NCBI GenBank assembly: GCA_034520665.1
Contig: JAXHNJ010000001.1
Span: 386,579-450,578, forward strand
Direction of reading: 5' to 3'
DNA from: Patescibacteria group bacterium
GTDB lineage: Bacteria > Patescibacteriota > Patescibacteriia > JAXHNJ01
Length of the DNA stretch: 64,000 nt
Shown here: positions 1-64,000 of the stretch, one piece after another
How the letters are laid out: the number at the start of each line of letters is the position of its first letter
Numbering within the stretch: the first letter of the stretch is position 1
Position numbers and translations under genes: made by a program
Notes under the pieces: generated by a model
The model's database searches: none
What the model saw: only the letters and a program-made list of their open reading frames with translations
Told to the model about the DNA's origin: nothing

Positions 1-30
1 AATTGAATAAGGTAATTTCATGTACAAATA

Positions 31-2607: not shown

Positions 2608-2611
2608 TACA

Positions 2612-5671: not shown

Positions 5672-5680
5672 AGATTAAAA

Positions 5681-5746
5681 TTACTTATTTTTATTTTCGT
5701 AATTTTGGATAGCTTTTAATAAGGTGTCAGCGTCCAAGTTTGAACA
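5681..5746 (-). pseudogene. diverged duplicate fragment of the iscU 3' end (last ~20 codons)
   Basis: Translation CSNLDADTLLKAIQNYENKNK matches the IscU C-terminus HCSNLAADALKKAIEDYEKKKK. It is about 75% identical at the nucleotide level to 6456-6520. Confidence 0.4.
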
Positions 5747-5821
5747 GAAATATATATTGACTATGAAAATCGCTTTTGATATGATAATATCATCGTTCTT
5801 CATAAAATAAGGAGGAAAAAC

Positions 5822-18697: not shown

Positions 18698-19747
18698 TTA
18701 CATATCAATTTCAGAAGGAGTAATCAGAACTTCTTTTAAATTTTCAAAATCTTCTAATATAAGTCCGGTGCCTCGCACGACACAGGTTAAGGGATCATCA
18801 GTTACATTGACAGGAATTTTAGTCTCCATATTTATAACTTTAGAAAGATTATTCAGTAAAGCGCCACCACCAGTTAAAACAATACCTCGGGTATAAATAT
18901 CAGAAACCAGTTCCGGTGGTGTGCTTTCAATAGTATTTTTAATATTTTCAACAATTGTTTTAAGAGACCGATTTAAAGCGTTTTTTACCTGAGAAGAAGT
19001 AATAGTTACTTCTTTAGGTAAACCGCTTATTAAGTCACGTCCGCGGATTTTCATTGCCTTATTTTCATTATCTTCAACCATAGCCGAGCCGATCTTTTTT
19101 TTACATTCTTCAGCAGTTTTTTCTCCAATTAAGAGATTAAATTCCTCACGAGTGTATTGGATAATATTGCGATCAAATTCGTTACCAGCTACTTTAAGAG
19201 ATTTTGAAGCCACGACGCCACCTAATGAGATGACCGCTATTTCTGTAGTGCCACCGCCGATATCAACTACAATATTACCTGAAGCATCTTGAATAGGCAG
19301 TCTGGCGCCAATAGCCGCAACCATTGGCTCTTCAATTAAAAATACTTCACTGGCTCCAGCGTGTAGAGTGGCGTCTTCTACCGCTTTTTTTTCCACTTCT
19401 GTTATGCCCAAGGGAATAGCAATTACTATACGCGGACGAGGTAAAAAACCAAATCTTTCTTGATGAACTTTTTCTATAAAATACTTGAGCATTTTTTCGG
19501 TCACTTCAAAATCAGAAATAACTCCGGAAACCAGAGGTTTCATAGCGGTAATATGAGAGGGGGTTTTGCCGACCATTTTCTTGGCTTCATCACCAATAGC
19601 TAAGATTTGTTCTGTTTTAGTATTAACGGCCACTACTGAAGGTTCATTAATAACAATACCTTTATCGCGAATATAAACTAAGGTATTAGCTGTTCCTAAA
19701 TCTATCCCCATATCCTTGGAAAATCTTTTAAATATTTTTTTAAACAT
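18698..19747 (-). CDS. mreB: rod shape-determining protein MreB (actin-like ATPase)
   Basis: GIDLGTANTLVY phosphate-1 motif and DIGGGTTE phosphate-2 motif. Confidence 0.9.
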   Translation of the reverse strand: MFKKIFKRFSKDMGIDLGTANTLVYIRDKGIVINEPSVVAVNTKTEQILAIGDEAKKMVGKTPSHITAMKPLVSGVISDFEVTEKMLKYFIEKVHQERFGFLPRPRIVIAIPLGITEVEKKAVEDATLHAGASEVFLIEEPMVAAIGARLPIQDASGNIVVDIGGGTTEIAVISLGGVVASKSLKVAGNEFDRNIIQYTREEFNLLIGEKTAEECKKKIGSAMVEDNENKAMKIRGRDLISGLPKEVTITSSQVKNALNRSLKTIVENIKNTIESTPPELVSDIYTRGIVLTGGGALLNNLSKVINMETKIPVNVTDDPLTCVVRGTGLILEDFENLKEVLITPSEIDM

Positions 19748-25937: not shown

Positions 25938-26945
25938 TTATTTGGCGGATAATATACTTCTCTTATAAGACTCGAGATTATCTAAAGCAATACCGGTTCC
26001 TTTGGCTACGCATAAAAGAGAATCATCTGCTACATAAGCATTAACACCAGTGGCTTGAGTTATTAAACGATCAATATTTCTTAAAAGTGAAGAACCGCCT
26101 GATAAGACCATGCCCTTATCTATAACATCTGCTGAAAGCTCAGGTGGAGTGTTTTGTAAAACTATTTTAATAGCCTGAATGATTGAAGAAAGTTCATCTT
26201 GAATAGCTTCGATTACATCATCTGAGATTATGGAAATAGTTTTTGGCAAACCAGAAATCATGTCACGCCCTCTAATATCCATACTTAATTTATCTTCTAA
26301 AGGTAAGGCGGAGCCTATTTTAATCTTTATTTCTTCAGCTGTTCTTTCGCCTATGGCTAAACTATATTTTTTTCTAACATATTCTATAATAGCAGTATCA
26401 ATTTTAGTGCCGCCTACTCTGACTGAGTTATTGAAAACAATGCCACCTAAAGAAATAACCGCAATTTCAGAAGTACCACCACCAATATCAACTATCATAT
26501 GCCCGGAAGCTGAACCAATAGGAATATTAGCGCCAATAGCCGCGGCCACCGGCTCTTTAATGATATAGGCTGCTTTAGCCCCAGCGGCCATAGTAGCGTC
26601 TATAACCGCTCTTCTTTCAGTTGAAGTGATACCAGCTGGCACGGCTATCATAACCTCTGGACGGAAAAGTCTCACTCCGCTTAGAGCTTTATTAATAAAA
26701 TAGCGAATCATAGCTTCTGTTGTCCGATAATCAGCGATTACGCCCTCCCTTAACGGTGTTTGAGCTACAATAGTATCAGGAGTTCTCCCGATCATATCTT
26801 TAGCTTCTAAGCCAACAGCTAATACCTTTTTATCAACCAAAGAAATAGCTACCACTGAAGGCTCATTAATAACAATTCCCCGTCCTGGCATATAAACTAA
26901 GGTGTAAGTAGTGCCTAAATCAATACCAATTCTTTTGAAAAACAT
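25938..26945 (-). CDS. second MreB-family actin-like protein (paralogue) embedded in the glycan cluster
   Basis: GIDLGTTYTLVY and DIGGGTSE motifs. The start shares ATGA with the stop of the upstream gene. Confidence 0.85.
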   Translation of the reverse strand: MFFKRIGIDLGTTYTLVYMPGRGIVINEPSVVAISLVDKKVLAVGLEAKDMIGRTPDTIVAQTPLREGVIADYRTTEAMIRYFINKALSGVRLFRPEVMIAVPAGITSTERRAVIDATMAAGAKAAYIIKEPVAAAIGANIPIGSASGHMIVDIGGGTSEIAVISLGGIVFNNSVRVGGTKIDTAIIEYVRKKYSLAIGERTAEEIKIKIGSALPLEDKLSMDIRGRDMISGLPKTISIISDDVIEAIQDELSSIIQAIKIVLQNTPPELSADVIDKGMVLSGGSSLLRNIDRLITQATGVNAYVADDSLLCVAKGTGIALDNLESYKRSILSAK

Positions 26946-45247: not shown

Positions 45248-48200
45248 ATGATAAAAAAAGTCAAAACAAAGTTTATATTATTCTTAGTCTTTTCCATATT
45301 TTTTTATTTATTAAAAATCCCTTCTATTTCTGCTATTCCTTCGGCTTACCAGAGATGTGAAACAAATAGCAGCTGCACTATTGGCGAATATGTTTTTGAA
45401 GATGATGGTCACACACCGATTATTACTGATAATTTCTGCCAAATTACCATTACCAACCCGAGTGACGGGGTTGAGGTCAATGCGGCTAATATGAGTGATA
45501 AAGATGATGGTTGGTATTATTATTCTGTTTCCGGCCTTACAGCAAAGGGTTTATACAGGGCTTTAATCTGTTGTGATGTGAGTGGTACTGATGAGCAATG
45601 TATCGACAAATCCTTCATAGTTGGAACTTCGCTTGATAACCTAAGAAAAGGTACTTTTGATTTTAATGGCCAGGCTGATTCTGGTACTACCACCACTCTA
45701 GTTGACGCTGAATTAATCCAGCCTGATGACTTTTGGAATGATTACAGTCTTATTATGATCTCAGGCAGCAATATTGGTCAAGAAAAAACTGTTTCTGATT
45801 TTGTTTCCAGCACTGACACCATAACTGTTTCTTCAGCTTTTTCTAATGCTGTTAGTGCTGGCGACGAATATATTTTAAAACACGAAACCAGTTTAATAAA
45901 AAACATTTGGACCTGGACTTCTGATACAGCTTCATTTTTTGCTAGTGCGGCTGGTGAAATATGGAGTTATACTGGGGCTTCCTTAGATACGACCGGCAAT
46001 GCTATAGCTAAGGTTTGGTCCTATGCTACCAGAACATTAACTGGCAATGACAACTTTAATGACCCCACTTCAGCTCAAATAGCCAGTGATGTCTGGTCTG
46101 AAGCCAGCCGAACTTTGACCGATTACAGTAATGATTTAAGTGCTAGTGATGTCTGGTCTTACGCCACACGCCAATTAACTTCCCGGTATACTAATGAAAA
46201 CACGCCAGTGGATCTAGCTCAAGTAGCTAATGTTTCTTTTTTAGCTACTTCGGCTGAACTTTCCACTACTGAAACTAATTTAACTAGTGAAATTGACGCT
46301 AATGAAACATTAATTAATAATCTTAATGATATTAGTGCTTCAGACGTTTGGTCTTACGCTAATCGCACCATTACTGACCCGGATAATATTTGGGAATACG
46401 CCTTAACACAAATCGGAGATACTGGCTCAATTGGAGAATTACTAAAAGATAATATTAACGCTACTATTTCTTCTCGGTCCTCGCATAGTGCTTCTGATGT
46501 CTGGAGCGTGGCCACCAGAACATTAACTGGCAATGACAACTTTAATGACCCCACTTCAGCTCAAATAGCCAGTGATGTCTGGTCTGAAGCCAGCCGAACT
46601 TTGACTGATTATGGTAATGATATTACTGCTTTAGATGTTTGGAATGTTTTAAGCTCTACTCTAACTACTACTGATAGTATTGGTGAACAATTAAGTGATA
46701 ATATAGATACTACTATTTCTAGCCGGGCCAGCCAAACCTCTCTAGATTCTGCCCAAACAGATATTACTTATATCCGCTCAGAAATTGACTCTGTCTATAC
46801 AGACACCCAACATATTAGCACTACTGTAGATAATATACTTTCCAATTGGTCCTCTTATACAGCTTCAGATATTATTGATGATTTAGATGGTATTAAAAAT
46901 TTAATTGGTGCTTCTACAGATTCCTCCGCTACAGAAACAATATTCGGTCGGGCCAAATACATTCAGGAAAAATGGGGCAACCAGACTGCTGAAAATATTT
47001 ACAACACATCTAATTCGACTCTAACTACTATAAATAGTGTACAAACTGAACTGGGTTATAATGGACTCTCCTCAACAGCTAAATCCGACCTTCAAAACAT
47101 TAAAACTTATACTGATAATTTAGAAACTTACCTTGGTTCACCTTCAGATAATTCTTCAACTGATTCCTTGTTCGGCAAAGTAGCCGCTGTAAAAACTAAG
47201 CTAGATCAACTTGACACTTTAGAAAGTAAGCTCAATACAGTAGAGACAGTGGTTGATGCCTTAAGCAGCTCTAGTTCAACAATTAGCGGCGAAATAAGTA
47301 TAGATGAAACTGACCCCATTTATACTTTGCTTAATAATATCAGCCGTGATATTCAAGTTATTGCCGGTGATCAAGGATATAATTTAGATAATCTTTATAA
47401 TATATCCCAGGAAAATTCGACCGATCTGACCTATCTTAGTAATAAAACAGCTGATTTAAAAACAGTTATTGATATTAATAAAAATCTAATAACTAAAATT
47501 ATAAATGAACCAGTTATTAAAACCTGGTATACTGAAGGATCAATTATTCTGAATATTCTAGTTATTAATCCGCCGGATACTGAAAGAACAGTTACTATTA
47601 AAGAATACTTACCTGAAGAAATTAGGGAAGAACATATCATAGAATTACCCAAAGAGTTAGAGCTTAATTATGACGCTGATCTGGATAAATATTATGTAAC
47701 AGCTGAAGTTAGATTGAAAGCCAACGAAAGAATAATCTTTAAAGTTAAAGCTGAAGATATTTATAAAATTTCTGATGATAAAGTTAATAATTTAAGAAAT
47801 CAGGCTAAAAGCCTGATGGAACCCCTTAAAAATACTAATTATTTTGCCCAGGCTTCACTTTTAAAATCAGAGATTGACGTTAATCTTGATACTGTTGTCA
47901 GAAATCAAGAAAAAAAACTTAGCAATGTCTTAAGAAAAATTTCACTGTTTAGGGAATGTCAAAAAAATCTTCAAAAAGTTGAGTTAAATTTAGAATCTCT
48001 AAAAACGCTTAATTCCGAAGTGAGCAGTCAACAGGGTATTTTAGGCAATTTACTCGGTGTTTCAACAACTATGACCTGGGCTATTATTATAATGCTGGTT
48101 GTCGGCATAGCTGTTCTTATGATTTTGCTTTATGTTTTACTGGCAAAACAACGGGCTATGGAACATCATATATCCGGTGGGGAAAAATTAAAAGCACCGC

Positions 48201-48379
48201 CTCTAGTTGATGTGAGAAAACACGCTACTCGCATTAAAGGTGGTCTTATTACTTATTTTTTGCCTCCTTTTGGTAAACCAGTGGTTGAATTGGGCCGGTT
48301 AATTAGTCTAATTAAAATTCTGCTAACAGTAGGTTTCTTGATAATTTTATTATTTTTAGTAATATATTTTTATTTCTAA
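45248..48379 (+). CDS. large (1043 aa) surface protein: signal peptide, S/T/D/N-rich repetitive ectodomain, two C-terminal TM helices
   Basis: Signal peptide FSIFFYLLKIPSISA. About 8 copies of an SDVWSYAxRTLT-type motif. C-terminal hydrophobic helices AIIIMLVVGIAVLMILLYVLLA and ILLTVGFLIILLFLVIYFYF. Confidence 0.6.
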   Translation: MIKKVKTKFILFLVFSIFFYLLKIPSISAIPSAYQRCETNSSCTIGEYVFEDDGHTPIITDNFCQITITNPSDGVEVNAANMSDKDDGWYYYSVSGLTAKGLYRALICCDVSGTDEQCIDKSFIVGTSLDNLRKGTFDFNGQADSGTTTTLVDAELIQPDDFWNDYSLIMISGSNIGQEKTVSDFVSSTDTITVSSAFSNAVSAGDEYILKHETSLIKNIWTWTSDTASFFASAAGEIWSYTGASLDTTGNAIAKVWSYATRTLTGNDNFNDPTSAQIASDVWSEASRTLTDYSNDLSASDVWSYATRQLTSRYTNENTPVDLAQVANVSFLATSAELSTTETNLTSEIDANETLINNLNDISASDVWSYANRTITDPDNIWEYALTQIGDTGSIGELLKDNINATISSRSSHSASDVWSVATRTLTGNDNFNDPTSAQIASDVWSEASRTLTDYGNDITALDVWNVLSSTLTTTDSIGEQLSDNIDTTISSRASQTSLDSAQTDITYIRSEIDSVYTDTQHISTTVDNILSNWSSYTASDIIDDLDGIKNLIGASTDSSATETIFGRAKYIQEKWGNQTAENIYNTSNSTLTTINSVQTELGYNGLSSTAKSDLQNIKTYTDNLETYLGSPSDNSSTDSLFGKVAAVKTKLDQLDTLESKLNTVETVVDALSSSSSTISGEISIDETDPIYTLLNNISRDIQVIAGDQGYNLDNLYNISQENSTDLTYLSNKTADLKTVIDINKNLITKIINEPVIKTWYTEGSIILNILVINPPDTERTVTIKEYLPEEIREEHIIELPKELELNYDADLDKYYVTAEVRLKANERIIFKVKAEDIYKISDDKVNNLRNQAKSLMEPLKNTNYFAQASLLKSEIDVNLDTVVRNQEKKLSNVLRKISLFRECQKNLQKVELNLESLKTLNSEVSSQQGILGNLLGVSTTMTWAIIIMLVVGIAVLMILLYVLLAKQRAMEHHISGGEKLKAPPLVDVRKHATRIKGGLITYFLPPFGKPVVELGRLISLIKILLTVGFLIILLFLVIYFYF
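46028..46125. repeat. 98-nt direct repeat, copy 1 (1 mismatch versus copy 2), inside the 1043-aa surface-protein gene
   Basis: accagaacattaactggcaatgacaactttaatgaccccacttcagctcaaatagccagtgatgtctggtctgaagccagccgaactttgac is identical at 46028-46119 and 46514-46605. Confidence 0.85.
46514..46611. repeat. 98-nt direct repeat, copy 2
   Basis: Partner of 46028-46125; it encodes the second TRTLTGNDNFNDPTSAQIASDVWSEASRTLTDY block. Confidence 0.85.
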
Positions 48380-53909: not shown

Positions 53910-55169
53910 GTGTGCTATAATAATAGTATGAATTCTATACAAGATTATTTTCGTTTTTGTAATAAAAAAACCAAGTCAGAAATTTTAAAATTGGCTGATC
54001 AGCTAGAGGATGAACATATTGTCATGATTAACTCCACTCCTTCTGGCGGTGGAGTGGCGGAAATTCTAAACAGCCTGGTTTTATTGTTAAACGATTTGGG
54101 ACTGGATGTTGGCTGGCGTATTTTAAAAGGTTCGGATGATTTTTTTCAGGTGACTAAAGAATTTCATAACGGACTCCAGGGAGAAAAAGTATCTATAAAC
54201 CGAAGAAAAAAAGGGCTTTATGAAAATACCAATTGTATTAACGCCCGTTCCACTCATATTGAAAGACATGATCTGGTAGTGGTTCATGATCCCCAGCCTC
54301 TGGCCTTGATCGAATATTATAAAAAAAGAATCCCCTGGATTTTACGGTTGCATATTGATTTATCCAATCCAGATCAAAAAGTGCTTGAATACCTTAAATC
54401 TTATATTGAGCAGTACGACTCAGTTATAATTTCTCACAAAAAATATAAATTAAAAAACCTGGCTGTCCAGCAGCTAATTATGCCGCCCTCAATCGATCCG
54501 CTCAATATGAAAAACCGTCCTATGAGTAACGATTCCATGATCGGAATATTAAAAAAGCATGGAATTACCTTACACAAACCAATTATTGCCCAGATTTCAA
54601 GGTTTGATAAGTGGAAAGATCCGATTGGCGTGATTAAGGTCTTTGAAAAAATACAAAAAGAATATGACTGCCAGCTAGTACTTTTAGGCAATCTTTCTAT
54701 TGACGATCCAGAAGCGCCTGAGATACTAAGAAAAGTACGGCAAAGAGCCCGAAATAATAAAGATATAACTATACTTTTAAATGTGGAAGATAATGACCGC
54801 ATGGTCAACGCTTTGCAGTCAGTTTCAGAAGTAGTTTTACAAAAGTCATTGAAAGAAGGTTTTGCTTTAACAGTCTCCGAAGCTATGTGGAAAGGTACCC
54901 CAGTGGTTGGTAGCCGAGTCGGCGGCATACCCCTGCAAATAAAAGACGGCCAAACAGGCTTTTTAGTTAATAATATTTCTCAAGCTAGCCAGGCCTGTTT
55001 AAAAATTATAACCAATAAAAAAAGACGTAACCGTATGGGCCGAGCCGCTAAAAAAAGAGTTAGAAATAATTTTCTTATTACCCGCCATATTCTTGATTAC
55101 TTAAGGCTTTTTGATTTTTATCTTAATCAAAATCACCAGTATAATATTGGCCAGAAATACCCTTATTAA
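53910..55169 (+). CDS. glycosyltransferase family 4 (GT-B; trehalose-synthase/TreT-like architecture)
   Basis: EGFALTVSEAMWKGTPVV E-x7-E motif and an N-terminal GT-B domain. Confidence 0.7.
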   Translation: MCYNNSMNSIQDYFRFCNKKTKSEILKLADQLEDEHIVMINSTPSGGGVAEILNSLVLLLNDLGLDVGWRILKGSDDFFQVTKEFHNGLQGEKVSINRRKKGLYENTNCINARSTHIERHDLVVVHDPQPLALIEYYKKRIPWILRLHIDLSNPDQKVLEYLKSYIEQYDSVIISHKKYKLKNLAVQQLIMPPSIDPLNMKNRPMSNDSMIGILKKHGITLHKPIIAQISRFDKWKDPIGVIKVFEKIQKEYDCQLVLLGNLSIDDPEAPEILRKVRQRARNNKDITILLNVEDNDRMVNALQSVSEVVLQKSLKEGFALTVSEAMWKGTPVVGSRVGGIPLQIKDGQTGFLVNNISQASQACLKIITNKKRRNRMGRAAKKRVRNNFLITRHILDYLRLFDFYLNQNHQYNIGQKYPY

Positions 55170-55226
55170 TATAAACTAAAAAAACCGCTTTAAATTATTT
55201 AAGGCGGTTTTTTAATATATTACAAC

Positions 55227-55532
55227 TTACTCTTTTTCTGATTTTATTTTTTTGATTATTTTCTTAATATTTCCAATAAATTTATCAGTCATTGATTGGC
55301 GACCAGACGAGCTCATATACTGGGTAATTCTCTTAAAAGTGCTTTGTTCGTATTCAATAAGACCAGCCGCTTTTTTTATATATTGGGCTTTGTCAAAATA
55401 AAACTTGGCAATTTTTTTCGAAGGTTTAGTTAATAAATTTTCCCCTTTAAATTCTTTTTCCTCCTTTTTTTTGTCTTCCTTACCCCTCGGTGATTGGCTT
55501 TTTTTTGTCTTCTTTTTCTTTTGTTTCATAAA
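55227..55532 (-). CDS. hypothetical K-rich protein (likely starting at the internal Met overlapping the mscS stop)
   Basis: The ORF track gives 55227-55610. The Met at 55532 gives a 4-nt ATGA overlap with mscS. Confidence 0.3.
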   Translation of the reverse strand, partial: FMKQKKKKTKKSQSPRGKEDKKKEEKEFKGENLLTKPSKKIAKFYFDKAQYIKKAAGLIEYEQSTFKRITQYMSSSGRQSMTDKFIGNIKKIIKKIKSEKE

Positions 55533-55533
55533 T

Positions 55534-56580
55534 TTAATTTTTGGTAAATATTGTTTGCGTGGGATAAGCAAAGGAAATTCCTTCGTTTTCAAAAACTTCC
55601 TTGATAGCAAAATGAATTTTTTGGTTTAAGTCCATATAATCATTATAGTCTTGTGACTCAACATAATAAACCGCTTCAATCCCCAAACTAGAATCATTAA
55701 AACTTTTAAAATGAGCCCGGTCATAACGCACCCGGTCGGTTTTGTCTATAATTTCTTTAATCAAATGAGGTATTTTTTTCAGCTTCTCAAAGGGGGTTTG
55801 GTAAGTGACCCCGAGATTTAAAACAATTCTTCTCTCTTTCATTCTTTTAAAATTCTGAATACGAGTGGAAGTTAACTCTTGGTTAGAAATAACTATTTCT
55901 TCGCCCTGCAGGGCTCGAATACGAGAGGTTTTAATACCGATCTTCTCGACTACACCCATATGCTTGCCAACCACAATAAAGTCACCAATGACAAAGGGCT
56001 TGTCAAAACGAATAGCAAAAGAAGAGAAAAGATCTGAAAGAATATTCTGTAAAGCCAAACCAATAGCTAAACCACCAATACCCAAACCAGCAACTAAAGA
56101 GGTTATATTAACTCCTAAGTTTGATAAAACTAATAACAAGCCAAAACTCCAAACAATTATCTTGGCTATCACACTAACCGTATTAACCGCTTGTTTTTTG
56201 CCGGGATCTTCTTCCTGGCCATATTTTCTTTTAGCTATGTAGTTAATTAATATCTGAATAGCTACCGCGACCTGGTAAACTAAAATAGCAATTAAAAGGG
56301 CGTTTAAAATATTCTGAAAAATACCGCTTTTATTTAAATAAAGAGCGGCTAAATAAAGACTAAAATAAAGATAAAAAGGCGGTTTGATATGTTCAATAAT
56401 CTCAATCAGCATATCATCAATATCAGTTTTTGACTTCTGAGCCAGTTTTTTCAGACGGTGAAGCAATAGAGCCTGAAATATCTTAAAAAAGACTAATAAA
56501 ACAAAAAAGAGGCCGATAAAAATCAGGTAATTTTGGATAGTATTGCCCCAATACTCAGTCGATAAAAAAGATGTGTCCAT
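55534..56580 (-). CDS. mscS: small-conductance mechanosensitive channel (MscS family)
   Basis: Three TM helices plus the beta domain FVIGDFIVVGKHMGVVEKIGIKTSRIRALQGEEIVISN. Confidence 0.85.
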   Translation of the reverse strand: MDTSFLSTEYWGNTIQNYLIFIGLFFVLLVFFKIFQALLLHRLKKLAQKSKTDIDDMLIEIIEHIKPPFYLYFSLYLAALYLNKSGIFQNILNALLIAILVYQVAVAIQILINYIAKRKYGQEEDPGKKQAVNTVSVIAKIIVWSFGLLLVLSNLGVNITSLVAGLGIGGLAIGLALQNILSDLFSSFAIRFDKPFVIGDFIVVGKHMGVVEKIGIKTSRIRALQGEEIVISNQELTSTRIQNFKRMKERRIVLNLGVTYQTPFEKLKKIPHLIKEIIDKTDRVRYDRAHFKSFNDSSLGIEAVYYVESQDYNDYMDLNQKIHFAIKEVFENEGISFAYPTQTIFTKN

Positions 56581-56730
56581 AAGTTTTTATTTAGTTAATA
56601 TTGAGTATAGCTTAAATTGGCCAAAAAATCAAATAGTTTATGGTTTTAGGGGTGTAGCGGTTAGTTTGGTTGTAGTTTTGGGTTTTTGGTGTATTTTAGC
56701 ATTTATGGTAATGACAAAGATTAAAATCCC

Positions 56731-56806
56731 ATATTTTATAAGCGTCTATCGGTGTACGGTTACCGAAGCCCGTATGGTTATACGGTATCGGTTTAGGTCG
56801 GATTTT
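56731..56806. repeat. 76-nt direct repeat copy A with conserved internal hairpin (candidate sRNA or regulatory element)
   Basis: atattttataagcgtctatcggtgtacggttaccgaagcccgtatggttatacggtatcggtttaggtcggatttt differs at 4 of 76 positions from copy B. Hairpin ccgtat-ggtt-atacgg. Confidence 0.6.
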
Positions 56807-56902
56807 ATCTATTTTTAAACTTTGTCCAAGCCGAAAATAAATTGTATAATTGACGAGCGATTTTGTTATAAATATTCAAATAAATTCCAAAAATCAAAGC
56901 AA

Positions 56903-56978
56903 ATATTTTATAAGCGTCTATCGGTATACGGTTACCGAAGCCCGTATCGTAATACGGTATCGGTTTACGTCGGATTTT
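56903..56978. repeat. 76-nt direct repeat copy B
   Basis: Same unit 172 nt downstream. The hairpin loop changes (ggtt to cgta) while both stem arms are preserved. A TTGTCC-N17-TATAAT promoter-like pair lies at ~56826-56854 on the plus strand. Confidence 0.6.
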
Positions 56979-57092
56979 TCCAAAACCAAAAAACTATAAC
57001 TTTACTCCTGCCCGGCTTTAGCAAAAGCGGCTATAACTAAATCCGATAGCAAAAAACAAATAAATAAGGATTACCAATTTAAATTAAAAAAT

Positions 57093-57638
57093 TTATGGCT
57101 TCTTTTTAGCTGTTTTTTTGGATTTCTTTTTAGTCAGTTTCTTGGTTTTTTTCTTTGGGGCTGGCTTTTTTGTCTTAACTTTCTTGGCTTGAGATTTTTT
57201 CTTGACCACTGGCTGTTCCAAGATACTGATAACCTTATCCAATTTGTAGCCTAAGGATTTTAATTGCTCAGCTAGCTGCTTATTGCCGGCTCCATCGCGG
57301 TTTCTCCGGTCACTTCGGCCACGCCAGCTTTTATTGCCTCGCCGATCGCCTGACCGGCCTTCTTTGGCAAAACAGTCATTACAGTAGATTGGTTTGCCAC
57401 TGGTCGGCCGAAAAGGCACTTGGCATTCCTGGCCGCATTGATCACAAACCGCTGAGAACATCGGCCGATCGCCTTTTCTAAAATCACGCCTTTTTGATCG
57501 GTTTGGTTGGTTTTCTTTTTGCTTCTCAAAGCAATGGCTGCATAAAACCGGCTTGCCACTGGTCGGCCGAAAAGGGACCTGGCAGGCCTGGCCACACTGA
57601 CTGCAGGTGGCTGGGAACATTTCTTTTTTAGAGTACAT
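57093..57638 (-). CDS. tandem zinc-ribbon protein (two CxxCGxxCxVPFRPTSGKPxxCxxCF modules) with lysine-rich C-terminal tail; likely nucleic-acid binding
   Basis: CSQCGQACQVPFRPTSGKPVLCSHCFEK and CDQCGQECQVPFRPTSGKPIYCNDCFAK modules, then the KKKSQAKKVKTKKPAPKKKTKK tail. The gene is visibly GC-rich and duplicated at the nucleotide level. Confidence 0.6.
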   Translation of the reverse strand: MYSKKEMFPATCSQCGQACQVPFRPTSGKPVLCSHCFEKQKENQPNRSKRRDFRKGDRPMFSAVCDQCGQECQVPFRPTSGKPIYCNDCFAKEGRSGDRRGNKSWRGRSDRRNRDGAGNKQLAEQLKSLGYKLDKVISILEQPVVKKKSQAKKVKTKKPAPKKKTKKLTKKKSKKTAKKKP

Positions 57639-57667: not shown

Positions 57668-57859
57668 TTATAATATTTCTTTGACCCGGCCAACTTCTCC
57701 TGACTGGAGCCGAACCTTAATACCGTGCGGATGATAGGGCGAATTAGTTAAAATATCCTGAACCACCCCTGGGGTCAGCTTTCCGCTTAATTGATCTTTT
57801 TTCTTGACCATAGCCACGCGCTGGCCTACTCTGATATCCTCTCTATTATGGCTGTTCAT
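57668..57859 (-). CDS. small conserved protein, YwbE/DUF2196-like
   Basis: 63 aa with a VKKKDQLSGKLTPGVVQDILTNSPYHPHGIKVRLQSGEVGRVKEIL pattern. Confidence 0.45.
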   Translation of the reverse strand: MNSHNREDIRVGQRVAMVKKKDQLSGKLTPGVVQDILTNSPYHPHGIKVRLQSGEVGRVKEIL

Positions 57860-57928: not shown

Positions 57929-57951
57929 AAAACCCTTAAAAAAAGGGTTTC
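57929..57951 (-). terminator. intrinsic terminator hairpin (aaccctt-aaaaa-aagggtt) with T-run on the minus strand
   Basis: Hairpin stem 57931-57937 pairing with 57943-57949. It lies ~370 nt downstream of the DEAD-box helicase stop; on the minus strand it is followed by ttttgatttg. Confidence 0.45.
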
Positions 57952-58316: not shown

Positions 58317-59588
58317 TTACCTTGACTTTCGAAAATTCCTTTTCTGTCTTTGACGGCCTTGATTGACTCTTCTTTTGCTATAGCGACGGCCAAACTTCTT
58401 CCGTGAACGTGAATAATTATAAGATTTTTTTTTCTTAGAATATCCTTTTTTTGGCAAATTCTTGGCCGAGATTGAACTTTTTTTACTAACCACAAGCTGT
58501 TTTTTTATCAATCGTTCGATATCTCGGACATCACGCCCTTGATCAGAGGTAGCGAAAGAAATAGCTTTTCCTTTTTTTCCGGCCCGAGCGGTCCGCCCAA
58601 TCCGATGGACATAGTCATCAGGAGTGCTCGGTAAATCATAATTTATAACCACTTCAATATTTTTTACATCAATCCCGCGAGCCGCGATATCCGTGGCCAC
58701 TAAAATTCTATATCTACCCGTCTTAAAGCCTTCAATGGCTGTTTGGCGCTGAGCCAGGCTGCGGTTAGAGTGAATTTCGTGGGCTGAAAAACCCATGGCT
58801 CGAATAATCTTGGCTAGTTTTTTGGTGCCCCATTTGGTTCGACAAAAAACCAAAACCGAACCGGAGAATTGGTTAAGAATATTTTTTAAGAATGATATTT
58901 TTTCATTGCCTTTTAGAAAAATAACTTCCTGATCGACCTCTTTAACCGTGGTTCCCGACTGTGATATTTCTACCCTTAAAGGCAGGTGCATATGCCGGCT
59001 GGCCAGGGACACAATAGAAGAAGGCATAGTAGCCGAAAAAAGCAGAGTCTGTCTTTTTTTAGAAATTTGCTTAATAATCTTTTCAATTTGAGGGGCAAAG
59101 CCCATATCAAGCATGCGGTCAGCTTCATCAAGCGTTAAAATTCCCACCTGATTTAGAATTGATTTATCACGGGAAAGAAGATCAATCAGCCGGCCGGGGG
59201 TGGCCATTATAACATGCGGTTTATTTTTCAAGGCCTTTTTTTGCATTTTGGCAGAAGCACCCCCAATAACCACGGCTGTTTTAATATTTAAAGATTTTCC
59301 AAATTGTAAAAATACTTGGTTTACTTGAGCAGCCAGTTCCCTGGTCGGAACCAAAACCAGTCCCCGTTTTTTTAGGCGGGCTATATTCTGTATCATCGGT
59401 ATAACAAAGGCCAAGGTTTTACCGGTGCCAGTTTGAGCAATACCCATAAGATCCTGGCCTTGTATAGCTAAAGGAATGGTTTTGCTTTGAATCGGGGTCG
59501 GTTTCTTAAAATTATTTCGATCAAGTATCTGCCGTAATTTTGGCGCTATACTCAGACCTTCAAAATTTGTCTCTGATTGGTTGGTCAT
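58317..59588 (-). CDS. DEAD-box ATP-dependent RNA helicase with basic C-terminal tail
   Basis: Q-motif region, AQTGTGKT (motif I), DEAD, SAT and HRIGRTARAG (motif VI). Confidence 0.9.
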   Translation of the reverse strand: MTNQSETNFEGLSIAPKLRQILDRNNFKKPTPIQSKTIPLAIQGQDLMGIAQTGTGKTLAFVIPMIQNIARLKKRGLVLVPTRELAAQVNQVFLQFGKSLNIKTAVVIGGASAKMQKKALKNKPHVIMATPGRLIDLLSRDKSILNQVGILTLDEADRMLDMGFAPQIEKIIKQISKKRQTLLFSATMPSSIVSLASRHMHLPLRVEISQSGTTVKEVDQEVIFLKGNEKISFLKNILNQFSGSVLVFCRTKWGTKKLAKIIRAMGFSAHEIHSNRSLAQRQTAIEGFKTGRYRILVATDIAARGIDVKNIEVVINYDLPSTPDDYVHRIGRTARAGKKGKAISFATSDQGRDVRDIERLIKKQLVVSKKSSISAKNLPKKGYSKKKKSYNYSRSRKKFGRRYSKRRVNQGRQRQKRNFRKSR

Positions 59589-59666: not shown

Positions 59667-61442
59667 TTATTTACGACTTTTATGGCGATCCGTTTCTTTC
59701 AAAAATTTCTTGCGCAGACGGATAGACCGCGGGGTAATTTCAAGATACTCATCACTATCCATAAACTCAAGACCACGCTCAATAGTTAAATCAATCGGGG
59801 CTATAAGATTAATGGCCTCATCACTGCCTGAGGCCCGCATATTAGTCAGTTTCTTGCCTTTAGTCGGATTGACCGTCATTTCATCGCCTTTGGCTGTATT
59901 ACCAATAACCATCCCCTCATAGACGACTGTATTGGGTTTAATATAGAGCTGCCCTCTATTCTGTAAATTAAATAAGGCGTAGCCTAAGGCCTTACCTGAA
60001 GTCATCGAAACCATGGAGCCGACGGACCGTGATTTGATTTCTCCAACATACTCTTGAAAGCCCAAATTTTCCGAAGAAATAGTCCCCTCCCCTCTGGTGT
60101 CCATAATAAATTCCCCCCGATAGCCAAGCAGGCCGCGAGACGGTATTTCAAAAGTCAGACGGGTCATCTCTTGGGTGCATAAATTTGTCATCACTCCTTT
60201 ACGGCTCTGGAGTTTTTCAATCACGGCACCGGACATTTCATTAGGCACATCAATAGTCACTAATTCAAAAGGTTCCAGGCGCTTATTATTTTTTTCTTTA
60301 TATATTACATGGGGCTGAGAAACCTGCATCTCATAACCCTCTCTTCTCATCTGTTCAAATAAAATAACCAGGTGCATTTCTCCCCGGCCAAATATTTTGT
60401 AGTATTCTTTATTATCAAAATCAATCTTCAAACCGACATTAACCTCCAGTTCTTTTTTTAAGCGTGCTTTTAGCTGACTATTAGTCACCTTTTTTCCCTC
60501 TTGCCCGGCCAAGGGTGAATTATTAACCATCAGGTGAACCGAAATGGTCGGCTCATCAACATGAATAGCACTAAGATTTTTCTGGCTTTTACTGTGGCAA
60601 ATTGTTTCGCCAATATCAATATCACCAATGCCAGAGACCATAGCAATATCCCCGGCTTCAGCTTTATCTACCTCTTGGCGGTCAAAGCCCTGGAAAGTAA
60701 AAATCTTGGTAATATTGGAACTTCGAAATTCACCATTCGGCTTCTTGATAATCACCTTTTCTCCTTTTTTTATAACCCCTTCATATACTCGCCCAATACC
60801 CATGCGTCCCAGAAAGTCATCATAAGCCAGATTAAAGGGTTGGAAACGTAAAAGTCGACTGGTTTGGTGAGAAGCCACTGGCACTTTTTCTAAAATCATA
60901 GCCAAAAGAGGGGTTAAGTCTTTTGATTGATCGGCTAGATTTTTCCGGGCTATTCCCTGAGAACCAATGGTGTAAATAACCGGAAAATCCAGCTGTTTAT
61001 TATTGGCCCCTAAATTCATAAATAATTCCAATATCATCTCCTCCACTGCTTCGATTCGGGCGGCCGGTTTATCAATTTTATTAATAACCACAATCGGCCT
61101 AAGACCCAGCTCAAGGGATTTTTTTAAGACATAGCGAGTTTGCGGCATCGGGCCTTCCTGGGCGTCGACTACCAGTAAGACCGAATCAATTGAACGCAAA
61201 ACACGCTCTACCTCTGATCCAAAATCAGCGTGGCCCGGGGTGTCAACAATATTAATTTTGGTACCCTGATAGAACAAGGCCGTGTTCTTGGCGTAGATGG
61301 TTATGCCGCGCTCTTTTTCCAGCACGTCTGAATCCATTGATAGAGTTTCATCAGATAGACCGGTTTGCCGAAGCAAAGCATCGGTCAGGGTAGTTTTGCC
61401 ATGATCCACATGGGCGATAATAGCGATATTTCTAATTTCCAT
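59667..61442 (-). CDS. typA: translational GTPase TypA/BipA
   Basis: [14 protein letters not shown]1 motif, [13 protein letters not shown], and EF-G-like domains III-V. Confidence 0.95.
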
Positions 61443-61664
61443 AATTATTTTAAAACCGGCTACTTTTTGAGAGCCGGAATTTTCCTTCTCTTTGTTAAGT
61501 TGTTTAGTATTATAGCAGAAAATCAGTTACTGTCAAGTTTATGGTTATTTAAACCTTTTTTTTACCCTCCTTACCTAAAGTCCGTATGAAAATAATATTT
61601 TCTTTTTTCCTAACCACTTCAGATGCTTACTCATGAAATAGAAAATAAGGTCGATCATTAAAGA

Positions 61665-61692
61665 GTAGATGTCAGTCGCGACTGACATCTAC
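61665..61692. promoter_or_regulatory. 28-nt perfect palindrome GTAGATGTCAGTCG|CGACTGACATCTAC in the typA / NUDIX divergent intergenic region
   Basis: Exact inverted symmetry was verified base by base. A GC-rich stretch at 61740-61835 lies between it and the NUDIX gene. Confidence 0.5.
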
Positions 61693-61923
61693 GGGTGGTC
61701 AACAACATAGAGAAATTTTTCTAAATCAGATATAAGGATCTCTCCACCTAGCCTGCCCCAATCCGCGCCTGCGGTGAGCGGAGTCACGCTGAGCCTGACG
61801 AAGTCGAACCGTCGAGGGGGTCGAGATGGATATAATATTTTCCAAACCCAAAAAACCACAACTTTACCAGCCGCCATAACTAAAACCTAAATAAAAACCA
61901 GCCAAGTATGCTATACTGGACCT

Positions 61924-62352: not shown

Positions 62353-62405
62353 AAAAAACCAACTTCGGATGGAAGCTGTTTTATTATATTATTTTTGTCA
62401 TTTTA

Positions 62406-62786
62406 TTAATTTTTACTTTTACCAATCTTCTCTAATTCAATTATCTCACTAATTTCTTTTATTTGCTTTTCAATAATTTCTATAATGTTTTTTAAATTTT
62501 TAGTTTGATCATCTGTAAGAGGGTCAATACCCCCATTAGTAAGACCTTCAAGCTCTACTTTAACTTTAAATAAATCAGAGCGCTGTAAGGGTAGCAACTG
62601 ATTTATTATAAACCTTAAATCCTTATCATCAACAGTCTTTTTCTTTTTTAATCTGCTAGTAACCAGAATTTTGTGTCTTTCCCAGGGAGGCGGAATTTTA
62701 TAGCCAGTTTGTTTCATATTTTTTCTTCCCCTGCCCGCCGAAGTTTTAGCGGAGGCGGGCTCTGATGAGGGGTTAGTAGCCGACAT
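62406..62786 (-). CDS. hypothetical protein (may start at the internal Met near 62717)
   Basis: It lies downstream of and overlaps the HNH gene. The C-terminal half is predicted helical, and the N-terminal 23 codons are GC-rich. Confidence 0.35.
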   Translation of the reverse strand: MSATNPSSEPASAKTSAGRGRKNMKQTGYKIPPPWERHKILVTSRLKKKKTVDDKDLRFIINQLLPLQRSDLFKVKVELEGLTNGGIDPLTDDQTKNLKNIIEIIEKQIKEISEIIELEKIGKSKN

Positions 62787-63285
62787 CCTTACTATTTAAA
62801 TTATCAATAAATTCACTTCCCTTATCTGTTATCTGCAAATAATCTGGATTAGATTTCATACCGCCGATTTTCACTCCAGCTGGAGTTTGTATCCATTTAA
62901 TAAAACCTGCTTCGATTATTCTTTTCACTAATAAAATTAAGTATGAAGGAAATTGCATTGCTTGACCAGGCGGAATTCTATTTAACTCAAATAAAACATC
63001 AATTTCAAAAGCGCTGAACCTATCATATAAATATATGAGATTGCTTTTGTACATTCTCAAACTTTTTCTATCTATTTTTCCTTGTTCAGCTAATCTGTGA
63101 CAATTTGGACAAAGCGCGATCAAATTACTGTATTCATGTTTTTTAACCTTACTCCATGGAACAATATGATGTATATCAACCACAATATTTCTGCATGTCG
63201 GAATTGCACATCTATGTCCTGCTTCAACTAAAACTTTTCTTTTTAGATTGGCGGGAATTTTAGTACGATTTTCTTCTTTGGCCAT
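62773..63285 (-). CDS. HNH endonuclease-domain protein with uncharacterised C-terminal domain
   Basis: CAIPTCRN...DIHHIVPWS...NLIALCPNCHRL HNH / zinc-finger motifs. Confidence 0.75.
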   Translation of the reverse strand: MAKEENRTKIPANLKRKVLVEAGHRCAIPTCRNIVVDIHHIVPWSKVKKHEYSNLIALCPNCHRLAEQGKIDRKSLRMYKSNLIYLYDRFSAFEIDVLFELNRIPPGQAMQFPSYLILLVKRIIEAGFIKWIQTPAGVKIGGMKSNPDYLQITDKGSEFIDNLNSKDVGY

Positions 63286-63358
63286 ATTATAATTTGATTA
63301 TAATTAAAAAGCGCTTCAATTTTAGCTCTAAAAGAGGTGGAAGTCAAGGGAAGAATAT

Positions 63359-63925
63359 TTAATATTTTTTTTGAATATTATTAATTTCTTTTGCGTTTTT
63401 TAAGAATATCTTTAGCCACTCCTCCTTGCTTTTTTCTATAATAAATTTATCTTTCTCTATTCTATTTTTACATTCATTTAATATATTTTTGGCCTTCTTT
63501 TTGAATCTTTTATCATTTGGAGCAACAAATTTATTTTTATTATAATTTACATAAAAAGCTTCTTGTTTATTAACATCCATTATAATTGCTTTTTGTTTCC
63601 TTGAAAGAAATGTTCTAGTAATGTAGTTAATAGTAACTTTCTTTTTGGAATTTGCCAGAATACTTCTTGAAATTTTATTTATATGACTTTTATATTTTTT
63701 AATAAAAATTTTCTGGCTATTAGGACGTTCATTTATTATATTGATAATCTCACTCCCAACCATTATTAATTTACCTAATTCCTCAAAACTAATAACACCA
63801 AGCACATATGCTCTTGAATATCTTTTATTATTAAATAATATCTTTGCTTCTTCATATAAATTAACAGCATTTTTATATACTAAAAACATGCCATCAATAG
63901 TTTTTTTAATATTTTTTTTATTCAT
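63359..63925 (-). CDS. hypothetical protein, possibly HEPN/AbiV-like abortive-infection family
   Basis: 188 aa. An N-terminal helix pair with a SFEELGK motif resembles the AbiV-type conserved EExGK; this is a weak, memory-based assignment. Confidence 0.3.
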   Translation of the reverse strand: MNKKNIKKTIDGMFLVYKNAVNLYEEAKILFNNKRYSRAYVLGVISFEELGKLIMVGSEIINIINERPNSQKIFIKKYKSHINKISRSILANSKKKVTINYITRTFLSRKQKAIIMDVNKQEAFYVNYNKNKFVAPNDKRFKKKAKNILNECKNRIEKDKFIIEKSKEEWLKIFLKNAKEINNIQKKY

Positions 63926-64000
63926 AAAAAATTAATAATATTCTAAAATGGAGCTATTATTAAGTATAGTAATTAAGAATTGTCTATTTTTTCCTATTAT

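Follow-up and report, generated by a model that had tools for sequence, protein, structure and literature searches.

The region described here lies between mscS and the gene of a double zinc-finger protein, both on the minus strand of a 64,000-nucleotide (64-kb) stretch of DNA from the MAG of an uncultivated Patescibacteria bacterium that was analysed as a whole and is referred to as the window. The gap between the two genes measures 512 bp, close to the ~500 bp between mscS and a zinc-ribbon gene given in the original prediction, and it is one of nine intergenic gaps of at least 250 bp in a window that is 90% coding. The gap contains two 76-nt direct repeats, units A and B, together with a spacer and short CA-rich elements:

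55534-56580, minus strand: mscS (mechanosensitive channel), downstream of the repeats on the minus strand; Pfam MS_channel domains; product 100% identical to a Patescibacteria MAG protein
56636-56692, minus strand: E1, a weaker CA-rich relative, between unit A and the mscS start; preceded by the -10-like TGCTAAAAT (56701->56693)
56731-56806, plus strand: repeat unit A, 76 nt; GC 0.42 for the whole unit and 0.53 for its core
56807-56902, no strand: spacer between the units, 96 nt, AT-rich, GC 0.24; unrelated to the outer flanks
56903-56978, plus strand: repeat unit B, 76 nt; differs from unit A at the equivalents of 56754, 56776, 56779 and 56796
56976-57054, plus strand: CA-rich element E2, abutting unit B; paralogous to E3 (61838-61896), upstream of a NUDIX gene
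57093-57638, minus strand: double zinc-finger protein gene, upstream of the repeats on the minus strand; two CxxC-x17-CxxC motifs (treble-clef) and a basic tail; PF23477 in two stretches

Architecture of the repeat units and their surroundings

The two units are identical at 72 of 76 positions (blastn E 6.6e-30), and alignment and blastn bear out the claimed coordinates, the start-to-start spacing of 172 nt and the four differences between the copies. The edges of the units are sharp. The flanks of A and B do not align with each other, and when flanks and spacer are compared by local alignment, the scores do not rise above those of shuffles. A simple tandem duplication of a 172-bp unit was considered and rejected, as TRF finds no array and the spacers are unalignable. 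The units had been described as GC-richer than their flanks, which holds (0.41-0.42 for whole units versus 0.24-0.30), and the 60-nt core, with a GC content of 0.52-0.53, exceeds the intergenic mean of 0.30 by ~2 sd (sd 0.10). It should be mentioned that atattttataagcgtc, which was claimed to precede each unit, in fact belongs to the unit and forms its first 16 nt. The motif WCGGT occurs five times per 62-nt unit core, compared to an expectation of 0.23 (0 of 5000 shuffles), and WCGG(T) motifs number five to seven per unit, in the orientations > > < < > > >. The duplicated units are real, and they are non-randomly built.

The zinc-finger gene is followed by a hairpin and T6, with the repeat units lying beyond, and unit B joins E2 at a shared T-run. 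E2 and E3 have in common a 30-mer that is 90% identical (E 2.5e-6), with more alignable sequence past a 19-nt insertion. For E1, the local-alignment score was reached by 4 of 500 shuffles against E3 and by 36 of 500 against E2. Compared to the nearest relative, the locus is a synteny breakpoint: the downstream gene order is kept, but upstream the place of the zinc-finger gene is taken by cysS. A pseudogene remnant in the gap was rejected after tblastn of 543 ORFs from related loci gave noise only (~22 bits). The locus also carries genes for DUF2196, a DEAD-box helicase and a trehalose synthase, and an integrase gene and defence genes are found elsewhere in the window.

The plus-strand ORFs that overlap the units had been judged probably spurious, and we agree with this judgement. 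The ORFs in the frame of the repeats have no Pfam match, a phmmer search of 1.84 billion representative proteins returned only one spurious tandem-repeat ORF, and no gene is called here in an independent assembly. Two paralogous small proteins, read from the plus-strand frame YFISVYR(C/Y)TVTEAR(M/I)VIRYRF(R/T)SDF in ORFs 56543-56818 and 56850-56999, are consistent with a frame that stays open through both units, with one loop change being synonymous and with a hydrophobic stretch upstream in the copy-A ORF, encoded by the G/T-rich 56650-56700. However, there is no common start, copy B having only a TTG inside a -10 box and no Shine-Dalgarno sequence, which genuine genes of this region do carry (for DUF2196, AAGGAG); the two ORFs show no relationship in their N- and C-terminal parts, and three of the four changes are non-synonymous. 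With no homologues, no Pfam match and no gene call, this highly improbable reading was rejected.

Alternative folds and the differences between the two copies

The hairpin recognised earlier at 56770-56785 is the upper stem of a longer, interrupted hairpin at 56762-56792. It is one of several structures that the units can adopt:

56762-56792, no strand: interrupted 11-bp hairpin or imperfect palindrome of unit A, ACCGA-AGC-CCGTAT-GGTT-ATACGG-TA-TCGGT; RNAalifold consensus on both strands
56934-56964, no strand: interrupted hairpin of unit B, loop CGTA; predicted to be out-competed, pair probability 0.13-0.15
56749-56759 in A and 56921-56931 in B, plus strand: spare copies of the 3' arm (TCGGT, then G/A-TACGG), which can pair with ACCGA or CCGTAT, replacing the 3' arms
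56942-56973, plus strand: copy-B-specific alternative hairpin, CCG ... CGUAA (56948-56952) / UUACG (56965-56969) ... CGG, then A and U5

The layout of a unit can be written as x-y-x'-y'-y-x, in which a single pentamer theme, WCGGT and its complement, recurs. Because x'y' can pair either with the downstream y-x, giving the 11-bp hairpin, or in part with the upstream x-y, two nearly isoenergetic and mutually exclusive folds result. In unit A the extended hairpin has a predicted energy of -12.0 kcal/mol and a pair probability of 0.72-0.76, and the alternative fold, x1:x' with the upper stem, reaches -11.4 kcal/mol. In unit B the copy-specific hairpin is present in both the minimum free energy and the centroid folds.

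A hairpin thermodynamically favoured over shuffled controls would have supported an RNA structure, and this expectation failed. The folding of the units is not better than that of shuffles (z of +0.79 and -0.64 on the plus strand, -1.26 and -1.02 on the minus strand, -1.91 at best), and a putative sRNA of 131 nt also folds ordinarily against shuffles (z -0.79). Since there are only two near-identical copies, covariation cannot be shown. A fold of the whole region 56640-57010, with a terminal helix that joins the left flank, rich in G/T, to the right flank, rich in C/A, was tried as well and dismissed as unconvincing, because its z reaches no more than -2.1 (plus strand) and -1.6 (minus strand), and the energy of the duplex between the left and right flanks is exceeded by 30-34 of 300 shuffles.

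The copies differ by 56754 G>A, 56776 G>C, 56779 T>A and 56796 G>C. As described in the original prediction, two of these four substitutions change the loop of the hairpin ccgtat-N4-atacgg (56770-56785 in A, 56942-56957 in B) from ggtt to cgta and leave its two arms untouched. The loop-restricted pattern had been taken as a hint of selection for RNA structure. The pattern itself stands (P = 0.016, post hoc), but the structural argument calls for revision, as the loop changes take part in a competing helix in copy B; zero changes in the 12 stem positions has P = 0.50, and zero in the 22 positions of the extended hairpin P = 0.26. Both loop changes and the change at 56796/56968 are mutually complementary, so that three of the four differences jointly create the 5-bp helix CGUAA/UUACG in copy B, beside a U5 run. 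This helix excludes the ccgtat/atacgg hairpin. About 1% of random variants with four substitutions do likewise, a post hoc figure. The remaining change, 56754 G>A, preserves a pair (G-U to A-U) on the plus strand only. A gain in stability from A to B was ruled out as a sign of selection, because 24% of random four-substitution variants of A match or surpass the folding energy of B; the minimum free energy of copy A is weaker than the mean of its random four-mutants. These results carry a caution of more general use, namely that substitutions confined to a loop, when seen in a pair of paralogous copies, lend RNA structure little support. The case for an RNA function of the units, as it stands, is weak.

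Searches for further copies and for transcription signals

No third copy was found in the window and ~6 kb of extra flank, ~70 kb of the 455,760-bp source contig in total, by an IUPAC pattern with three mismatches, blastn-short or nhmmer, the last applied also to all retrieved loci, among them the extra flank. Rfam release 15 gives no match at the gathering threshold in the whole window, and relaxing the cut-off to E<=10 for 56400-57200 yields nothing above noise (the best being rli60, with 25.8 bits against a threshold of 60 and an E of 0.48), so the covariance models place the units in no family. ARAGORN reports no tRNA or tmRNA gene in the 64-kb window. Among GTDB representative genomes, ACCGAAGCCCGTATNNNNATACGG has one chance match, inside a 376-aa ORF of Cohnella. 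JGI metagenomes yielded no match to a strict 36-nt pattern and two to a gapped hairpin pattern, one being an ordinary terminator and the other an unrelated site whose surroundings are GC-rich, and there was no match in IMG/VR to two patterns nor in phages and plasmids by BLAST in distant mode. The nearest relatives, identified by their MscS (57-66% identity) and zinc-finger proteins (54-63%), carry the element neither beside mscS nor beside the zinc-finger gene. No relative with a neighbour protein more than 66% identical is present in the databases. The zinc-finger genes of these relatives end in classical terminators. Before its mscS, the nearest relative has a structured, RNA-like element of its own, which is not homologous to the units. 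Further copies or conservation, which would have strengthened the original prediction, are thus missing from the contig region, the collections and the nearest relatives searched.

Promoter-like sites were located in the spacer and at its border with unit A:

56822-56850, plus strand: TTGTCC-N17-TATAAT, 10/12 matches with a perfect -10; 53 nt upstream of unit B
56841-56869, minus strand: weak predicted site ATAACA-N17-TACAAT, 9/12, directed towards unit A and mscS
56829->56802, minus strand: second weak predicted site TTGGAC-N16-TAAAAT, 8/12

The plus-strand site had been reported before and is present, though at background density: a scan of the region gives three promoter-like sites against 3.1 expected from shuffles, and matches of at least 10/12 occur 3.2 times per kb of intergenic DNA in this window. 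Upstream of copy A there is no promoter-like site above 8/12. Downstream of copy A, two candidates for an mscS promoter are the -10-like TGCTAAAAT (56701->56693) and TTGATT-N17-TATACT (56632->56604). A simple terminator scan calls no canonical terminator on either strand of 56400-57300, and a non-canonical hairpin followed by A-U5 is found in copy B only. It is noted that this genome does use canonical promoters and terminators, with a sigma-70 promoter of 12/12 upstream of bipA.

Candidate explanations and comparison with known systems

We tentatively propose that the units are copies of a lineage-specific structured nucleic-acid module, most likely an RNA read from the plus strand, with copy B resembling the gene of a ~120-nt sRNA. 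Transcription, the strand and a regulatory role are what we infer here. The anatomy of copy B would be that of an sRNA gene of ~110-125 nt, comprising TTGTCC-N17-TATAAT 53 nt upstream, an AU-rich 5' part, the structured module and the copy-specific hairpin with A-U5. Copy A, having no convincing promoter or terminal hairpin, may be a decaying or older duplicate, or else a second cis copy of the same recognition module. This proposal is consistent with the ~95% identity within sharp bounds, the GC-rich core, the WCGGT array, the consensus hairpin on two strands, the competing folds, the G-U to A-U change that is conservative on the plus strand only, the copy-B helix, the promoter-like site for copy B and the rarity of so long a gap. 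Against it stand the ordinary folding, the background density of promoters, the missing canonical terminator, the lack of an Rfam family and of other copies, the absence in relatives and the post hoc nature of the helix statistic. The analysis does not bear out the original designation as paralogous small RNAs, with a promoter-like site for copy B alone, no canonical terminator, an ordinary folding energy and two copies that cannot covary. Its alternative designation as regulatory elements has some support, gaining from the very non-random WCGGT array.

Nearly as likely as the plus-strand RNA module is a young local duplication without function, in which illegitimate recombination or template switching at the synteny breakpoint placed a second copy of a 76-nt piece ~170 bp from the first. 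The 95% identity would then follow from the copy being recent. The replacement of the zinc-finger gene by cysS upstream in the nearest relative fits such an event, as does the patchwork of short paralogous pieces that makes up the gap (A/B and E1/E2/E3, with B joining E2 at a T-run). The lack of conservation and extra copies in the collections searched, the ordinary folding stability, a copy A less stable than most of its mutational neighbours, and, in the only open frame, three non-synonymous changes and one synonymous, as expected under neutrality, all point the same way. However, tandem copying would include the spacer, yet the spacer and flanks are unalignable; the unit is far from random (the WCGGT array in 0 of 5000 shuffles, the GC island); a 90%-coding genome is expected to shed useless DNA; and the differences cluster in one potential helix (~1%). 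The same WCGGT array could instead act as double-stranded DNA, as half-sites for a DNA-binding regulator that lie upstream of the mscS promoter region and control mscS, the promoter-like sites of the spacer, or both. We consider this rather unlikely. The five to seven oriented WCGG(T) motifs per unit argue for it, together with a 31-nt imperfect palindrome that is the same on either strand, the position of the units beyond the hairpin and T6 of the zinc-finger gene and upstream of the -10-like boxes of mscS, and the way in which the units bracket overlapping divergent promoter-like sites. The spacing of the motifs by 6-7 bp, though, falls off one face of B-DNA and would be atypical for helix-turn-helix operators, the two units lie at unequal distances from the candidate start sites, the uncharacterised zinc-finger protein is the only adjacent candidate for a regulator gene, and the same motifs were not found upstream of other genes of the window.

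It is improbable that the divergent promoters in the spacer read copy B in the sense direction, as a plus-strand sRNA, and copy A in the antisense direction, as part of a long mscS leader, so that the sRNA controls mscS. Copies read in opposite directions would give two RNAs that are complementary at 72 of 76 positions, and selection to keep them complementary would account for units that are so alike, yet sharply bounded by unrelated flanks. Promoter-like sites that overlap or stand back to back are indeed present between the units (plus 56822-56850, 10/12; minus 56869->56841, 9/12, and 56829->56802, 8/12), but the minus-strand sites are weak and at background density, the better mscS candidates downstream of copy A would leave this copy untranscribed, the complementary region would lie 150-225 nt from the mscS start codon, and the minus strand has no toxin-like ORF. 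A self-contained RNA switch for mscS, with copy B as an sRNA of ~120 nt and copy A antisense to it in the mscS leader, appears about equally doubtful. In a variant of the switch, CGGU arrays on the plus-strand RNA would be bound by the adjacent zinc-finger protein, by analogy with RanBP2-type zinc fingers, which recognise GGU; this would link the zinc-finger / DUF2196 / DEAD-box helicase cluster to the plus-strand RNA. Slightly more doubtful still is a remnant of a mobile or integrative element, be it MITE/REP-like repeats, subterminal hairpins of the IS200/IS605 type or attL/attR-type duplications. Hairpin-bearing direct repeats flank a short segment at a synteny breakpoint, the CA/GT-rich E1 and E2 are inverted around the A-spacer-B block, and the window holds integrase and defence genes elsewhere. 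Nevertheless, the ends of the units (ATATTTTATAAG... and ...GTCGGATTTT) form no terminal inverted repeat, a target-site duplication is missing from the flanks, the inverted similarity of E1 and E2 is marginal (36 of 500 shuffles), there is no adjacent transposase, the units are not tRNA-like, and two copies are all that is seen in ~70 kb, with none in IMG/VR, phages, plasmids, GTDB genomes or JGI metagenomes.

Patescibacteria (CPR) have reduced genomes and few recognisable regulators, and to our knowledge almost nothing is known about their small RNAs or cis-regulation. If verified, an sRNA or regulatory module beside mscS would be a rare handle on the control of an osmotic-stress gene in this group. 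As an orphan in a single MAG, the element has its present value as a well-characterised candidate.

Several known systems share part of this arrangement. Like REP/BIME or MITE sequences, the units are short, palindromic, intergenic and GC-richer than their surroundings. However, those families are multi-copy and dispersed, whereas two copies at one locus and none elsewhere in ~70 kb are found here, and MITEs have terminal inverted repeats and target-site duplications, while the units lack terminal inverted repeats. The GC-rich hairpin followed by U residues, with spare upstream arms that compete and folds that are almost isoenergetic, is reminiscent of an intrinsic terminator or attenuator, and a genuine terminator with the same arm sequences was met as a chance match (L013: ACCGACCCCCGTATAAAATACGGGGTCGGTTTTTT). 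In contrast to such elements, the main hairpin is followed by no more than UUUA, it is not called by the terminator scan, and there is no plus-strand gene upstream or downstream to terminate or attenuate.

In the par locus of pAD1, RNA I and RNA II are read in opposite directions across the direct repeats DRa and DRb (PMC7472228). The units A and B likewise flank promoter-like sites, and reading in opposite directions would yield complementary RNAs. Unlike par, the present locus has no small hydrophobic toxin ORF and no bidirectional terminator, and its putative promoters would be divergent instead of convergent; its 76-nt repeats greatly exceed those of par in length and no start codon lies near them, and opposite-sense transcription is predicted from weak matches. 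The divergent type I toxin-antitoxin pairs tisB/istR-1 and zorO/orzO work similarly to par. In the search for a type I toxin here, the minus-strand ORFs after copy A were found to encode 3 and 13 aa and are not hydrophobic, and the plus-strand ORF that does encode a hydrophobic stretch lacks both a Shine-Dalgarno sequence and homologues. Should the RNA switch for mscS exist, it would be a case of the direct-repeat antisense logic of the par/Fst type applied to a housekeeping stress gene.

PrrF1 and PrrF2 each have their own promoter and terminator, whereas at the present locus a promoter-like site is seen for copy B only, no canonical terminator for either copy and no homologue in the collections searched. 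According to the published account, PrrF1 and PrrF2 of Pseudomonas aeruginosa are tandem sRNAs of 116 and 114 nt, both repressed by Fur, and occur at separate genomic loci in other pseudomonads (PMC2851614). The likeness to units A and B is one of arrangement: as in the PrrF pair, two near-identical short units lie head to tail in one intergenic region with a short unrelated spacer, and the units extend from an AT-rich, -10-like stretch as far as a T-run.

Sequence and setting of the repeat units

The two units are plus-strand direct repeats, A at 56731-56806 and B at 56903-56978, which agree at 72 of 76 positions with a start-to-start spacing of 172 nt, as first noticed. The four differences from A to B are 56754 G>A, 56776 G>C, 56779 T>A and 56796 G>C. 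The match is far above chance (E 6.6e-30), and the locus is reproduced base for base in the independent Logan assembly of run SRR26473340. The atattttataagcgtc thought to precede each unit is actually the start of the unit itself. The unit edges are sharp: the 96 nt left of A, the 96-nt spacer and the 96 nt right of B align no better than shuffles, and no tandem array was detected by TRF. This rules out simple tandem duplication of a 172-bp piece.

The units are indeed GC-richer than their surroundings, with 0.52-0.53 in a 60-nt core, whereas intergenic DNA averages 0.30 (sd 0.10); the genome, a Patescibacteria MAG, is AT-rich, with a GC content of ~0.27-0.42 in the window. The repeat is real and its sequence clearly non-random, so that a past or present function as nucleic acid, for the unit or for its ancestor, is very probable.

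Both units lie in a 512-bp gap, close to the ~500 bp first estimated. The minus-strand order is bipA, DEAD-box helicase gene, DUF2196, zinc-finger gene, repeat gap, mscS and a small hypothetical gene, beyond which a trehalose-synthase-like glycosyltransferase is encoded on the plus strand.

Genes around the repeats
59667-61442, minus strand, bipA
58317-59588, minus strand, DEAD-box helicase gene
57668-57859, minus strand, DUF2196
57093-57638, minus strand, zinc-finger protein with two CxxC-x17-CxxC treble-clef fingers and a basic tail
55534-56580, minus strand, mscS, product 100% identical to a protein of a Patescibacteria group bacterium

On the strand of the zinc-finger gene, a hairpin and T6 run (~57035-56990) come after it as a probable terminator; the repeats therefore sit past this terminator, upstream of mscS. 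An internal direct repeat of the zinc-finger gene (57368-57461 and 57527-57620, 72-76% identical) corresponds to its two CxxC-x17-CxxC modules. Two other duplications were seen in the window: a 149-nt direct repeat (46008-46156 and 46494-46642, 87% identity), presumably an internal protein repeat of the 1043-aa ORF 45248-48379, and 19212-19723 with 26437-26942, 7.2 kb apart and 71-74% identical over 95-182 nt, probably a paralogous gene pair.

Pentamers, competing folds and the four substitutions

Each 62-nt core has five occurrences of the pentamer WCGGT or its complement, compared to 0.23 expected (0 of 5000 shuffles). If TCGGT is called x and TACGG y, the order of elements in the unit is x y x' y' [loop] y x. 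Contiguous pairing joins the central x'y' to the y x downstream of it, giving ACCGA-AGC-CCGTAT-N4-ATACGG-TA-TCGGT, of which the ccgtat-N4-atacgg hairpin noticed earlier is the upper stem. The upstream x y is unable to build the same contiguous helix but can draw x' or y' away from the downstream arms; the fold pairing the first x with x' and keeping the upper stem reaches -11.4 kcal/mol, only 0.6 kcal/mol from the -12.0 of the extended hairpin.

Predicted helices
56762-56792 (A) and 56934-56964 (B), RNAalifold consensus on both strands, interrupted hairpin ACCGA...TCGGT
56948-56952 with 56965-56969, copy B, perfect helix CGUAA/UUACG, closed by CCG/CGG and then A-U5

The usual tests do not favour RNA structure of the units. 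The fold z-scores are +0.79 (A) and -0.64 (B) on the plus strand; the minus-strand values are -1.26 and -1.02, and no frame does better than -1.91, so that the hairpin, checked by folding both copies, is not favoured over shuffled controls; a putative 131-nt sRNA around copy B gives -0.79. The two copies, which differ at four unpaired positions, can give no covariation. Two substitutions (56776 and 56779) do fall in the hairpin loop as claimed, and at least two of four in a given 4-nt loop has P = 0.016, a post hoc value, but the accompanying absence of changes from the stems is ordinary (P = 0.26-0.50).

In copy B, both "loop" changes and the change at 56968 are mutually complementary. The resulting CGUAA/UUACG helix is the MFE and centroid fold of B and excludes the hairpin of the original prediction, whose pair probability is 0.13 in B versus 0.72 in A. 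The remaining change (56754 G>A) turns a G-U into an A-U pair in a 5' helix and is meaningful on the plus strand only. Placement of at least three of four changed positions in one perfect 5-bp helix occurs in ~1% of random 4-substitution variants, a hint, post hoc and not proof (P about 0.01), that the A/B differences are structure-related. This observation cuts both ways: the pattern is unusual, whereas the energy gain is unremarkable, with 24% of random variants of A folding at least as well as B and the average mutational neighbour of copy A more stable than A itself.

Signals, relatives and the mosaic gap

The TTGTCC-N17-TATAAT element reported upstream of copy B is present, and two minus-strand sites in the spacer stand back to back with it.

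Promoter-like sites
56822-56850, plus strand, TTGTCC-N17-TATAAT, 10/12 match with a perfect -10
spacer, minus strand, ATAACA-N17-TACAAT, 9/12 match
spacer, minus strand, TTGGAC-N16-TAAAAT, 8/12 match
61509-61536, minus strand, sigma-70 consensus TTGACA-N16-TATAAT with TG, perfect 12/12, upstream of bipA

Sites as good as 56822-56850 occur 3.2 times per kb of intergenic DNA in the window, and the number found locally matches what shuffled sequence gives. Upstream of copy A the best plus-strand match is at most 8/12. This CPR genome does use canonical signals, as the 12/12 site before bipA and several classical terminators show. The lack of a canonical terminator in either unit therefore counts against two complete sRNA genes. 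A further promoter-like TTGACA-N17-TAAGAT with TG upstream lies at 58197->58169 (minus), and ~220 nt past it is a hairpin (57929-57951) with a T-run; the segment 57920-58200 (minus, fold z -2.4), in a 457-bp gap, might encode an sRNA or form a long leader ahead of DUF2196.

The recommended covariance search matched no Rfam family, no tRNA was detected, and no third copy turned up in the window and ~6 kb of added flanking sequence. GTDB representative genomes, JGI metagenomes and IMG/VR, scanned by pattern, and phages and plasmids, searched by BLAST, yielded chance matches only (a site within Cohnella coding sequence, an ordinary terminator and an unrelated site where the sequence is GC-rich). 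The protein database holds no close relatives, the best MscS being 66% and the best zinc-finger protein 63% identical, and the repeat is absent near both genes in the nearest relatives. The best MscS relative (locus L002) keeps the gene order downstream, with mscS, small hypothetical, TreT-like glycosyltransferase, exonuclease and GT2 common to window 53910-56580 and L002 4001-9047; its upstream neighbour is cysS, versus the zinc-finger/DUF2196/DEAD cluster here. Other MscS relatives have 42-78-nt gaps upstream of mscS, and classical terminators without the repeat follow the relatives' zinc-finger genes. The repeat is thus restricted to this lineage, and the gap that carries it is a synteny breakpoint.

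The cysS-mscS gap of L002 contains a different, strongly structured RNA-like element (3770-3968, plus strand, 199 nt, -76.8 kcal/mol, z -4.2, 0 of 200 shuffles as stable). It starts past a promoter-like site that contains TTGACA, finishes with a GC-rich hairpin and U7, and has neither an Rfam match nor sequence kinship with the 76-nt repeat; it ranks as a good candidate sRNA or leader, so far undescribed.

A second, C/A-rich repeat family, E, adjoins the units. Beginning within the last bases of unit B, the 30 nt at 56976-57005 match 61838-61867 at 90% identity, and the similarity of E2 and E3 resumes past a 19-nt insertion.

Members of family E
56976-57054, plus strand, E2, abutting unit B
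61838-61896, plus strand, E3, just upstream of the NUDIX gene
56636-56692, minus strand, E1, weaker inverted relative between unit A and mscS

The E1 score is reached by 4 of 500 shuffles against E3 and 36 of 500 against E2. E1 and E3 are both rich in C and A when read on the sense strand of the next gene (mscS and NUDIX, respectively), and each directly follows a -10-like box (TGCTAAAAT and TATAAT, respectively), which gives them a promoter-proximal or leader look and suggests shared sequences of this kind in genes without a Shine-Dalgarno. E2 faces the zinc-finger gene at its 3' end, with no gene for it to serve. Thus the gap is put together, mosaic-like, from short paralogous pieces, which fits either modular regulatory evolution or past illegitimate recombination.

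Between bipA and the NUDIX gene, a GC-rich island (61650-61830, 0.47-0.70) contains a perfect palindrome with a 12-bp stem (61665-61692). Rfam gives no match to the island even at E<=1, and a contig of the independent assembly stops within it; the island might be a structured RNA of unknown type or the end of an element. The window ends (1-6000 and 62400-64000; loci L007 and L008) carry mobile/defence-type genes, encoding a tyrosine integrase, PIF1 helicase, SMC-like protein, HEPN/AbiV and HNH protein, and a LexA-fused methyltransferase gene lies just outside the window.

Possible identities of the units

The reading ranked first, tentatively, is a plus-strand RNA module in which B would be an sRNA-like gene and A a second copy without a promoter. 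Of the two putative paralogous sRNAs originally proposed, only copy B has a promoter-like site, of a quality common in the intergenic DNA of the window, and neither has a canonical terminator. A young functionless duplication in the mosaic gap is ranked next and is nearly as likely; the ordinary folds and lineage restriction speak for it, and the pentamer excess speaks against it. The same pentamers would suit an array of DNA-binding sites, a less likely reading, ranked third.

Divergent transcription of the direct repeats into an antisense pair, ranked fourth, is improbable; the back-to-back sites would allow it, at matches of 8/12 to 10/12, and the principle is documented for par DRa/DRb (PMC7472228). 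Slightly less credible still is a mobile-element remnant, ranked fifth, with the synteny breakpoint for it and the lack of further copies in the window and added flank against it. Small proteins rank last, as very improbable. The frame YFISVYR(C/Y)TVTEAR(M/I)VIRYRF(R/T)SDF is open across both units on the plus strand, yet the two ORFs have no common start, no Shine-Dalgarno (DUF2196 has AAGGAG) and unrelated ends, and three of the four changes are non-synonymous. The suspicion that these ORFs are spurious is borne out: they have no Pfam match, phmmer against 1.84 billion representatives returned a spurious tandem-repeat ORF only, and the gap is empty in the Logan gene calls. No pseudogene remnant was detected in the gap.

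Compared with known systems, a tandem sRNA pair is defined by two promoters, two terminators, transcripts and conservation. The units here show neither canonical terminators nor conservation in relatives, and their best upstream promoter-like matches are 10/12 for copy B and at most 8/12 for copy A. The closest known arrangement is such a tandem pair, for example PrrF1/PrrF2 (PMC2851614).
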